A stretch of DNA of 34,449 nt from Bdellovibrionota bacterium. GTDB lineage: Bacteria; Bdellovibrionota_C; UBA2361. The stretch lies in NCBI GenBank assembly GCA_044352465.1, contig JBILDU010000025.1, positions 1 through 34,449 on the forward strand. Direction: 5' to 3'. The stretch's first letter is position 1; the number at the start of each line of letters is the position of its first letter. The position numbers and the translations under genes are program-made. A model generated the notes under the pieces. The model had not been told where the DNA came from. It ran no database searches and worked only from the letters and a program-made list of their open reading frames with translations. This document shows positions 8,859 through 9,735 of this stretch, piece after piece.

Positions 8859-9043
8859 TCCCGCCTCCGGCGGGAACTGGGTTCGCTTCCCTCCGGGAGG
8901 TGACTCGCAACTTTGAGGGTAATTGGCACGCCCGGAGGGAATCGCCGCGCTAGCCTCTCCCGCCTCCGGCGGGAACTGGGTTCGCTTCCCTCCGGGAGGT
9001 GACTCGCAACTTTGAGGGTAATTGGCACGCCCGGAGGGAATCG
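8859..9043 (-). repeat. two identical 86-bp direct repeats (99-bp period) overlapping the tRNA-Trp 3' end
   Basis: 8859-8944 = 8958-9043; each includes the last 21 nt of tRNA-Trp plus 65 nt of trailer. Confidence 0.95.
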
Positions 9044-9098
9044 AACCCCCAACCAACGGATTTGGAATCCGCTACTCTACCAATTGAGCTACGGGCGT
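9023..9098 (-). tRNA. tRNA-Trp(CCA)
   Basis: Cloverleaf; anticodon arm GCGGA-TTCCAAA-TCCGT; GTTCGA T-loop; encoded CCA. Confidence 0.97.
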
Positions 9099-9113
9099 AG
9101 CTTTGAGAAGAAG

Positions 9114-9189
9114 TGGAGCCCATAACGGAACTCGAATCCGTGACCTCTCCCTTACCAAGGGAGTGCTCTACCAGCTGAGCTATATGGGC
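9114..9189 (-). tRNA. tRNA-Thr(GGT)
   Basis: Anticodon arm CTCCC-TTGGTAA-GGGAG; encoded CCA. Confidence 0.97.
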
Positions 9190-9211
9190 GTATACTCACG
9201 ACCGAGTGGGC

Positions 9212-9240
9212 ATTATGTAGAGAAGCAGATCAATTGTAAA
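9212..9240 (-). promoter_or_regulatory. sigma70-type promoter for tRNA-Thr/tRNA-Trp
   Basis: TTTACA - 17 nt - CATAAT, about 22 nt before tRNA-Thr(GGT). Confidence 0.7.
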
Positions 9241-9261
9241 TATTCCGAACGCGCTTGACGC

Positions 9262-9290
9262 TTTACATCCCCAAAAAAAGAAATCATTCT
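9262..9290 (+). promoter_or_regulatory. sigma70-type promoter for tRNA-Thr/Gly/Tyr
   Basis: TTTACA - 17 nt - CATTCT, back-to-back with the minus-strand promoter. Confidence 0.55.
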
Positions 9291-9321
9291 GGGATGGGGT
9301 GGGTCTAAATCCGCGCGATAC

Positions 9322-9394
9322 GCTGGCATAGCTCAACTGGTAGAGCAGCTGATTTGTAATCAGCAGGTTATGGGTTCAAGTCCCGTTGCCAGCT
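9322..9394 (+). tRNA. tRNA-Thr(TGT)
   Basis: Anticodon arm GCTGA-TTTGTAA-TCAGC; GTTCAA T-loop; CCA not encoded. Confidence 0.96.
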
Positions 9395-9430
9395 TTGATT
9401 TTAACTGATACTCCTTACCGCTCCTCGATT

Positions 9431-9678
9431 CTCGAATCGCTAGCGCGATTCGAGGGGTGCATCAGCCTCGTCAAGCTTGCAGCTTGAACGGCTGATGGAC
9501 CGAAGAGGTAACTCTTGAGTTCACCGGATGCGGGAGTAGCTCAGTTGGCCCCTTTTATGCTCGAATCGCTGGCGCAATTCGAGGGGTGCATCAGCCTCGT
9601 CAAGCTTGCAGCTTGAACGGCTGATGGACCGAAGAGGTAACTCTGAAGTTCACCGGATGCGGGAGTAGCTCAGTTGGC
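9431..9678 (+). repeat. two 119-bp direct repeats (129-bp period) overlapping the tRNA-Gly 5' end
   Basis: 9431-9549 vs 9560-9678, 4 mismatches; each ends with the first 20 nt of tRNA-Gly. Confidence 0.95.
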
Positions 9679-9735
9679 TAGAGCATCAGCCTTCCAAGCT
9701 GAGGGTCGCGAGTTCGAGTCTCGTCTCCCGCTCCA
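9659..9735 (+). tRNA. tRNA-Gly(TCC)
   Basis: Anticodon arm TCAGC-CTTCCAA-GCTGA; encoded CCA. Confidence 0.97.

Follow-up and report, generated by a model that had tools for sequence, protein, structure and literature searches.

Two tandem arrays of short, hairpin-rich units flank tRNA genes in the 34,449-bp contig JBILDU010000025.1 of a Bdellovibrionota bacterium (NCBI GenBank assembly GCA_044352465.1). This whole contig (C123), part of a genome bin of 3.13 Mb in 170 contigs (G000), is referred to here as the window. One array lies on the 3' side of tRNA-Trp and the other on the 5' side of tRNA-Gly, and the units of both hold an exact copy of one end of the adjacent tRNA gene, hairpins and an internal arm complementary to that same tRNA. 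This design is a recurrent companion of tRNA genes, occurring at tyrV/tyrT of Escherichia coli and at many tRNAs of the order to which this bacterium belongs. With slightly better than even confidence, the arrays are interpreted here as the tandem amplification of hairpin modules at tRNA flanks, the transcripts of these modules being by-products of tRNA processing. The most novel item of the analysis, a new structured element of two hairpins with covariation support (element E), was found outside the region of the two arrays.

tRNA genes are usually seen as fixed points that are disturbed only by phages and islands. The modules described here are short, encode no protein and are in part derived from tRNA; they gather on both sides of tRNA genes, and their copy number shifts between close relatives and probably also within populations.

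Tandem arrays beside tRNA-Trp and tRNA-Gly

On the Trp side, Tandem Repeats Finder identified a repeat of period 99 at 8859-9043 (1.9 copies, 100% matches), which a repeat search resolved into two identical stretches of 86 nt (8859-8944 and 8958-9043, 100% identity). The array is laid out as 86 exact nt, 13 nt and a further 86 exact nt, with the 13-nt spacer matching the stretch past the distal copy at just nine of thirteen positions. The 99-bp tandem unit proposed in an initial annotation of this DNA, made from the sequence alone, is accordingly exact in its 86-nt copies and not in its 13-nt remainder. The array is lineage-specific and made of 99-bp units, each consisting of a trailer and the last 21 nt of the gene. 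The arm within the unit targets 9030-9048, which corresponds to the T-arm and the 3' strand of the acceptor of tRNA-Trp; its inverted local-alignment score was 33, against a mean of 15.3 and a maximum of 21 among 60 mononucleotide shuffles of the flank. The predicted fold of the unit has an energy of -44.6 kcal/mol (z -1.8), and the arm is predicted to pair with the next direct copy of the 3' end, forming an extended hairpin from which ..GCCA protrudes as an unpaired tail. A search of 90 other genomes of the order for the Trp unit gave no clear match and one marginal match. The unit is absent from the sister genome G001 of the same genus, and no further copy of it was found within G000. What G001 possesses instead is a copy of tRNA-Trp positions 1-46, located upstream of tRNA-Trp and joined to element E.

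Contigs from lake-water sequencing runs (X1-X3) cover both arrays; these runs belong to other studies, and one of them may be the sample behind the assembly of the window. The Trp junction is spanned without any difference by contigs of X2 (8859-8987) and X1 (8915-8987). The contig of the 86-nt repeat is deeper than its flank in X1 (65.4 vs 10.9) and in X3 (46.8 vs 11.9), and in X2 the repeat forms a contig of 129 nt (99 + 30, the cycle length expected with k=31) at a depth of 43.6 vs 8. This excess over the flank, of four to six times, suggests that natural populations carry four to six Trp units, i.e. that the repeat has collapsed in the assembly, the estimate being one from contig depths, which can mix strains.

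On the Gly side, Tandem Repeats Finder reported 9431-9678 (period 129, 1.9 copies, 96%), and the repeat search gave 9428-9549 and 9557-9678 (122 nt, 96%; length range 119-122 nt). The 5' strand of hairpin b of the leader resembles tRNA-Gly positions 24-42, while its 3' strand (9609-9626) complements positions 26-43. This strand and its counterpart at 9480-9497 form the Gly arm, complementary over 18 nt with two mismatches (89%) to the anticodon arm at 9684-9701. The arm scored 26 in the same test, with a mean of 14.6 and a maximum of 20 for its own 60 shuffled flanks, and the predicted fold of the leader has an energy of -44.9 kcal/mol (z -3.9). The Gly junction (9520-9606) is spanned by contigs of runs X2 and X3. 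G001 possesses a single copy of the leader, in which both hairpins and the arm against the anticodon arm are present and which differs from the native leader of G000 at 14 of 109 nt (counted by hand on the alignment). As the leader is single and already bears the arm in G001, the Gly array is a local duplication and the arm is older than that duplication. The array is an in-place tandem duplication, within this lineage, of 129 bp comprising the native leader and the first 20 nt of the gene.

No match above 8 nt was found between the Trp and Gly units. The two unrelated units of one design that the initial annotation had described were recovered, with the exact tRNA end measuring 21 nt for Trp and 20 nt for Gly and the complementary segments of 18-19 nt scoring far above the shuffled flanks.

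Partial tRNA copies elsewhere in the genome and in relatives

Six of the 44 tRNAs of G000 possess self-copies, five of them exact (Val(tac), 46 nt; Trp, 21 nt; Gly, 20 nt; Ser(gga); Ser(cga)) and one decayed; exact copies were counted where they lay within 600 nt of the tRNA and were not explained by a neighbouring paralogue. At tRNA-Val(tac) (contig C80, 7611-7863), an exact copy of positions 1-46 is located 180 nt upstream of the gene and is followed by element E at 7657-7737 (69 bits, the sole strong match to E in this genome) and then by a 12-nt arm complementary to positions 40-51. The two Ser arrays (C127, 8600-8937 and 10148-10458, continuing at C16, 1-120) lie in opposite orientations and share a near-identical trailer unit of 77-78 nt. 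Three units of 77 nt were identified at Ser(gga) and at least two of 78 nt at Ser(cga), where the array leaves its contig and resumes on C16; each Ser unit ends in the last 19-20 nt of its own tRNA and holds an inverted T-arm. The decayed copy is a 5' copy of Pro(ggg), identical at 29 of 37 positions.

The four unit types of this genome gave no cross match above 8 nt. In BLAST searches of the whole genome, the Trp, Gly and Val spacers matched their own loci only, so that a dispersed repeat was rejected as their source, and the Ser spacer matched the two Ser arrays and the start of C16. The main repetitive extragenic palindromic (REP) family of the genome was also rejected, since its sequence differs and is absent from the units. 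Two copies of this REP-like repeat (core GTACCGGGGCTAC, the commonest 11-mer family of the genome) are located in the window at 12056-12100, and the repeat also flanks a RayT-like gene on C3. A further hairpin element of ~45 nt with the core GAGCGAGCGAAGCGAG has three copies (C61, ~6980-7040; C77, ~41230-41273; C43, ~42950-42998), one of which abuts the 3' end of tRNA-Ala(cgc) and another of which lies ~200 nt from a tyrosine-recombinase gene. Distant partial copies were seen of tRNA-Arg(cct) positions 33-61 (~93%; C89, 11289-11317 and 13510-13537, 2.2 kb apart) and of tRNA-Leu(taa) positions 39-76 (92%; C96, 2322-2359); these could be ordinary remnants of attachment sites.

Partial copies within the same tRNA cluster were identified in at least seven of 30 relatives (G001, G003, G008, G013, G016, G027 and G028), four coming from 19 scanned loci and three having been chosen for their partial matches in the search of all 30, with the rest of the 30 not exhaustively examined. 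They occur at Trp, Gly and both Thr genes and have differing breakpoints. One layout recurs at Val of G000, Trp of G001, Trp of G028 and Thr of G027: positions 1-46 are copied in direct orientation 123-156 nt ahead of the intact gene, and an arm complementary to positions ~39-51 is situated 30-53 nt before the gene. The scan of tRNA flanks for which the initial annotation had asked, in this genome and in related ones, has shown that the pattern is conserved beyond the two loci in the window.

The tRNA-Ile(gat) gene is usually located in the spacer of the rRNA operon. In G008 (locus L109, contig C181), a copy of positions 1-46 of tRNA-Ile(gat) joined to element E was observed ~180 nt upstream of an intact tRNA-Ile, and the arm of this locus is complementary to positions 39-48.

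A two-hairpin element joined to tRNA-derived sequence

Element E was defined from a core of two hairpins common to four spacers, namely those of G000 Val, G001 Trp, G028 Trp and G027 Thr. It measures ~60-100 nt and encodes no protein. The first bases of hairpin 1, ACG or AGG, follow immediately on tRNA position 46, the hairpins are separated by a linker that resembles AACAGAGG, and hairpin 2 consists of a variable stem and a conserved loop. Among eight sequences of hairpin 2, 100% of the stem cells were paired and six of eight pairs were changed on both sides; the covariation score was reached by none of 500 shuffles, and no slid register came near it. Rfam (E-value up to 1) returned no family for E in seven loci that hold it, only tRNAs and chance matches. 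Over 37 distinct matches, the stems contained 360 Watson-Crick, 11 G.U and 2 A.C cells, which fits folding of the tRNA-sense strand.

A covariance model (R1) was built for E and used at an E-value of up to 0.01 within the order and of up to 0.001 within the phylum. Of 91 genomes of the order, 41 gave matches (1-12 each), and two of 33 genomes of the phylum outside the order gave weak ones. Together with the six tRNAs of this genome and the seven or more relatives, this distribution supports the common process suggested in the initial annotation. In a search for the exact E pattern covering one genome per species (185,579 species), 21 loci were found, six of which are in metagenome-assembled genomes (MAGs) of Bdellovibrionota/Bdellovibrionales; the remaining loci, from unrelated taxa and unchecked, were taken for chance. 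Viral contigs gave no match to the pattern.

The flanks of 54 E matches were read by eye: 39 abut tRNA-derived sequence, two more lie inside arrays of such sequence and 13 have none. Some of these 13 are located between convergent genes or inside a longer dispersed repeat of G030. The tRNA species beside E are Val, Trp, Thr, Gly, Pro, Arg, Asp, Met, Ile, Glu and Tyr. Many partial tRNA copies in the order are joined to E, mostly right after position 46, and two settings can be distinguished: in one, E interrupts a pseudo-tRNA, with position 46 on one side of it and the T-arm on the other, and in the second a partial copy is followed by E, the arm, a spacer and the intact gene. Most breakpoints are loop positions (19-20 in the D-loop, 36-38 in the anticodon loop, 46 in the variable loop and 55-58 in the T-loop), and 26 of the 31 distinct matches starting with ACG or AGG come after GG or TG. 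The Val module is common to G000 and G001 (~95%), with one more unit in G001, where an extra E of 87 nt also lies between positions 26 and 27 of the partial copy, cleanly and without target duplication. This extra unit and the clean 87-nt copy indicate that E is inserted or duplicated as a discrete unit and that arrays grow and shrink.

In design, the window units come closest to those of the trailer array behind tRNA-Arg(cct) of G030 (period 167-168 nt), in which a spacer is followed by a 24-nt inverted copy of T-arm and acceptor, by hairpin 2 and by a decayed copy of the 3' end. Solitary matches to hairpin 2 are located ~60 nt behind a tRNA and after an inverted T-arm. The parts of the Trp unit follow the same order as in this Arg unit, with a stretch like the hairpin-2 loop just before the copied 3' end; this amounts to a resemblance, with no demonstrated relation. 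The dispersed repeat of G030 (loci L095-L098 and L102, on contigs C51, C8, C2, C20 and C52) is at least 250 nt long and is present in at least five near-identical copies, frequently at the ends of contigs; it includes a hairpin resembling hairpin 2 in type, with no tRNA nearby.

tRNA cluster and gene neighbourhood

The tRNA cluster is divergent, with Thr(ggt) and Trp on the minus strand heading towards secE/nusG and Thr(tgt), Gly(tcc) and Tyr on the plus strand (Table 1). A promoter-like site was identified at 9240-9212, upstream of the minus-strand tRNA-Thr(ggt). No terminator-like site was found between the Trp or Gly tRNA and its own array or within the arrays, and co-transcription of module and tRNA is therefore probable. 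The neighbouring genes include secE, nusG and that of a radical-SAM/B12 protein. None of the nine open reading frames (ORFs) scanned between 7450 and 16180 has an integrase or transposase domain, in agreement with the initial annotation, which had noted that neither is adjacent. The three matches to PF00589 in G000 are all off the window, on contigs C71 and C43. The three ORFs overlapping the repeats gave no match in Pfam, and a protein-coding reading was rejected. Rfam (E-value up to 1) identified only tRNAs and chance matches in this region of the window. The locus was absent from six RNA sequencing runs, in which 0.05-0.07 of its words were present, corresponding to conserved parts of tRNA.

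Table 1. Positions of the tRNA genes and array parts in the window
Feature	Position	Strand	Evidence or remark
tRNA-Trp(cca), intact	9023-9098	-	ARAGORN; Rfam tRNA, 69.8 bits; 9023-9043 is the tRNA-proximal end of the 99-nt period
Trp trailer unit, proximal (78 nt): spacer, T-arm-complementary arm, GC hairpin, GGCTAGCGCGG stretch	8945-9022	-	
Exact copy of the last 21 nt of tRNA-Trp (positions 56-76, CCA included), breakpoint in T-loop	8924-8944	-	21-nt exact match
Trp trailer unit, distal	8847-8923	-	8859-8923 exact, 8847-8858 diverged; 95% over 78 nt
Arm complementary to tRNA-Trp positions 51-69	8978-8996; second copy 8879-8897	-	19 nt, 1 mismatch (95%)
GC-rich hairpin inside Trp unit	8958-8975; second copy 8859-8876	-	7-bp stem, 3-nt loop
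tRNA-Thr(ggt), first gene of the Thr-Trp pair	9114-9189	-	ARAGORN
tRNA-Thr(tgt), upstream of the Gly leader array	9322-9394	+	ARAGORN
Gly leader unit 1 (129 nt), ending in a copy of tRNA-Gly positions 1-20 (9530-9549)	9421-9549	+	D-loop breakpoint
Gly leader unit 2 (native leader)	9550-9658	+	single copy in sister genome G001
Leader hairpin a	9560-9583; unit 1 copy 9431-9454	+	7-10-bp stem around GCTGGCG core
Leader hairpin b	9585-9630; unit 1 copy 9456-9501	+	conserved in G001
tRNA-Gly(tcc), intact	9659-9735	+	ARAGORN, Rfam
tRNA-Tyr(gta)	9848-9930	+	ARAGORN, Rfam

Three further features were observed beside tRNA genes of the window. A hairpin between tRNA-Gly and tRNA-Tyr (CCTCGCG-CTAGCCA-CGCGAGG, 9799-9819) has a loop of CTAGC type that recalls those in the hairpins of the tRNA-flank modules. 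Directly 3' of tRNA-Tyr (9960-10030) is a long tract rich in pyrimidines (TC) that includes short tandem repeats, and the stretch 24355-24512 holds tRNA-Pro(tgg) and, ~50 nt downstream of it, an exact tandem repeat of 15 nt (2.2 copies).

Origin of the arrays

In the interpretation favoured here, the term module denotes a short leader or trailer, rich in hairpins, in which pieces of the neighbouring tRNA occur in both direct and inverted form. Hairpin modules of the E kind would settle in or beside tRNA genes, probably as single-strand insertion elements or repeat elements that land in loop positions, and would persist only where an intact copy of the gene stays. The tRNA-identical stretches and the hairpins would then drive slipped-strand or unequal recombination, by which units are added and removed, while gene conversion may hold the partial copies identical to the live tRNA. 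The modules are probably co-transcribed with the tRNA, and tRNA-processing enzymes would cut off structured by-product RNAs, as for the rtT RNA of E. coli; the unit RNAs would mostly be neutral or selfish by-products and not a dedicated system. The turnover that this implies can be seen in the Trp unit missing from G001 and in the Val arrays of G000 and G001, which differ by one unit and one 87-nt E.

Several points weigh against amplification of flank modules as a full account. The number of Trp units was estimated from contig depths, in which strains may be mixed. The arm is always cognate and usually lies across the breakpoint, and this is left unexplained: the direct copy ends at position 46, and the arm regularly spans that point (Val, 40-51; Trp, 32-51 or 39-51; Thr, 40-51), which would not be expected from slippage alone. 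For the mechanism behind the arm, hairpin opening at a break, fold-back priming, quasi-palindrome correction and tRNA-templated synthesis were considered, and none explains all junctions. The four unit types of G000 have no common sequence, so that they may, as far as their sequences tell, have independent origins. Selection for function could be at work, since the Val module is intact in two families and the Gly leader hairpins are kept in G001. The best match of the window units to model R1 was 9.1 bits (E-value 0.25), and the E loop motif has no match in the window; the link of the Trp and Gly arrays to E is therefore one of likeness in design only. No enzyme that moves E was found. The Y1 transposase (PF01797) was rejected for this role, as its presence in 84 of 91 genomes does not discriminate those 41 that hold E, and the Y1/RayT-like genes of G000 are flanked by another repeat, not E. 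Of the proposals in the initial annotation, a mini-element mobilised in trans fails for the Gly array, an in-place duplication, and is supported solely by the related E with its clean 87-nt insertion, an element which the window units do not match; no co-occurring associated gene was found.

It is also conceivable, though we consider it rather improbable, that the modules are undescribed parasites of tRNA genes. They would be protein-less two-hairpin elements that enter the exposed loops of tRNA genes in the tRNA-sense strand, each with a complementary arm copied from the target, and that survive only where partial duplication leaves an intact gene. The main site of insertion would be the one after position 46, with others in the anticodon loop and behind G18G19. 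If true, such parasites would drive the leader and trailer arrays of G000, of E. coli tyrT and of many uncultured lineages, and the arm would either serve as a guide to the target or be what is left of an insertion step that was templated and possibly involved reverse transcription. A related proposal, to which still less weight is given, is that guide-bearing mini-elements home to tRNA genes, the arm acting as guide and the copied end restoring the gene, with the enzyme encoded elsewhere. It would account for an arm that is always cognate (Val, Trp, Thr, Gly, Ile, Pro, Met and Arg) and spans the breakpoint in most cases, and the position of most breakpoints in tRNA loops, the GG or TG before most ACG/AGG starts, the one clean insertion difference of E without target duplication and the occurrence of E away from tRNAs all agree with it. 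However, the Gly array is demonstrably a local duplication, and an arm and a copied end that are specific to one tRNA are not transferable between tRNA species by a moving element. The duplicated stretch, moreover, varies between ~50 and 85 nt, unlike the product of a fixed staggered cut, and neither a candidate enzyme nor a viral copy was found.

Among the alternatives to amplification with by-product transcripts, functional leader and trailer RNAs kept for their action on tRNA biology are the least unlikely, yet still unlikely. The arm could pair with the pre-tRNA or the partial copy and so time folding, processing or read-through into secE-nusG, or hairpin RNAs might be set free whose 3' ends resemble those of tRNA and whose action is comparable to that of E. 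coli rtT RNA or of 3'ETS-leuZ, a tRNA external transcribed spacer that sponges small RNAs. The Gly leader hairpins and arm conserved in G001, the Val module with E conserved across two families with compensatory changes, the excess of G.U over A.C cells expected if a tRNA-sense transcript folds, the lack of a terminator between tRNA and unit, and the predicted hairpin with its free tail all speak for such RNAs. So does the E. coli counterpart, an annotated small RNA that is placed in tyrT transcript processing by a statement in a preprint (10.1101/2024.07.17.603846). Against them, the Trp unit is absent from G001 and the rest of the order, unit number varies, units at different tRNAs have no common sequence, partial copies decay (Pro(ggg) and the pseudo-copies with inserts), and the locus is absent from the six RNA runs. 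Integrase scars, in which the copied tRNA ends would be attL/attR cores of lost phage-like or island-like elements, are very improbable. The 19-21-nt copies of the 3' end at Trp and Ser do break in the T-loop, reportedly described by Williams in 2002 as a classic sublocation for integrases, and distant partial tRNA copies as well as an integrase beside the tmRNA occur elsewhere in G000. The copies are just 13-78 nt apart, though, with no integrase nearby, and at Gly, Val and others it is the 5' part that is copied, a part of the gene that to our knowledge integrative elements do not duplicate. The Gly unit, furthermore, is the native leader, the units are tandem and uniform, and no element bearing an integrase was found between the same repeats in the relatives examined. 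Even less credence is given to duplications made by the assembler from strain variants: the bin is fragmented and arrays break contigs (as for Ser(cga) at the end of C127), but difference-free contigs from runs of other studies span the junctions, the raised depth of the repeat points to collapse and not invention, and the same design is present in many independent assemblies and in the finished genome of E. coli.

The arrays offer a tractable model of how hairpins and tRNA-identical stretches drive local duplication. In practical terms, they break short-read assemblies, collapse in MAGs and give partial tRNA matches that can be mistaken for genes or integration scars.

Comparison with known systems

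Partial tRNA genes have been ascribed to integration or CRISPR (clustered regularly interspaced short palindromic repeats) activity, according to a passage in one source (PMC9897764). Like the tRNA duplications of attL/attR sites, the Trp unit has a direct repeat of the 3' end with a breakpoint in the T-loop. It differs from them in lacking an integrase and an insert the size of an element (13-78 nt separate the copies), and the arrays differ further in their tandem uniform units and in the existence of 5' copies. A duplication of the 3' part, typical of att sites, is true of Trp, whereas Gly copies positions 1-20.

Element E resembles the REP sequences and bacterial interspersed mosaic elements (BIMEs) associated with RayT, and the derivatives of IS200/IS605, in being short, protein-less and built of hairpins, in causing no target duplication, in reaching multiple copies in some genomes and in forming tandem arrays. 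It is distinguished from REP/BIME by its location, mostly in or beside tRNA-derived sequence (39/54), usually with an arm complementary to that tRNA; the window units, in turn, are confined to single loci and are not dispersed. Compared with the IS200/IS605 type, E gave a clean 87-nt insertion without duplication and two hairpins, and no transposase with matching ends was tied to it.

The nearest known counterpart of the window arrays is the tyrT/tyrV repeat of E. coli (NC_000913.3), the original work on which, and on rtT RNA, is reportedly that of Egan and Landy (1978), Rossi (1981) and Boesl and Kersten (1991). A repeat of 178 bp is located behind tyrV in 3.1 copies and is annotated as the small RNA RttR (rttR) together with the tpr frame. 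Its units contain, three times, the exact last 19 nt of tRNA-Tyr with CCA and a breakpoint in the T-loop and, again three times, an inverted copy of positions 56-77 from the T-arm region (score 29). Like the Trp and Ser units of G000, these are tandem, 3' of a tRNA, and hold an exact 3' end and an inverted T-arm, and no mobile-element gene is annotated within either. The E. coli locus weakens the proposal of the initial annotation that the system is undescribed. The G000 units are shorter (77-99 nt vs 178), the arrays mirrored on the 5' side (Gly and Val) are seen in this lineage and not at tyrT/tyrV, and the downstream position of the tyrT type is shared by Trp and not by Gly, which lies upstream of its gene. 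A discrete processed RNA is known for E. coli only; a statement on this rtT RNA gives it a role in tyrT transcript processing and perhaps in the stringent response, with an unknown mode of action (10.1101/2024.07.17.603846). Sequence homology between the E. coli and G000 units was not found (T-loop words of 8-12 nt only, E-value > 0.05), and their likeness lies in design and not in descent. Literature searches yielded no paper describing arrays of this type in Bdellovibrionota or treating the design more generally, so that, as far as these searches show, the design is known in one model organism and is not described as a class. It is common to the arrays of the window and to a 45-year-old oddity of E. 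coli, the role of which is still unknown; if one process lies behind it, the tyrT repeat would be a member of a widespread class and not a curiosity.

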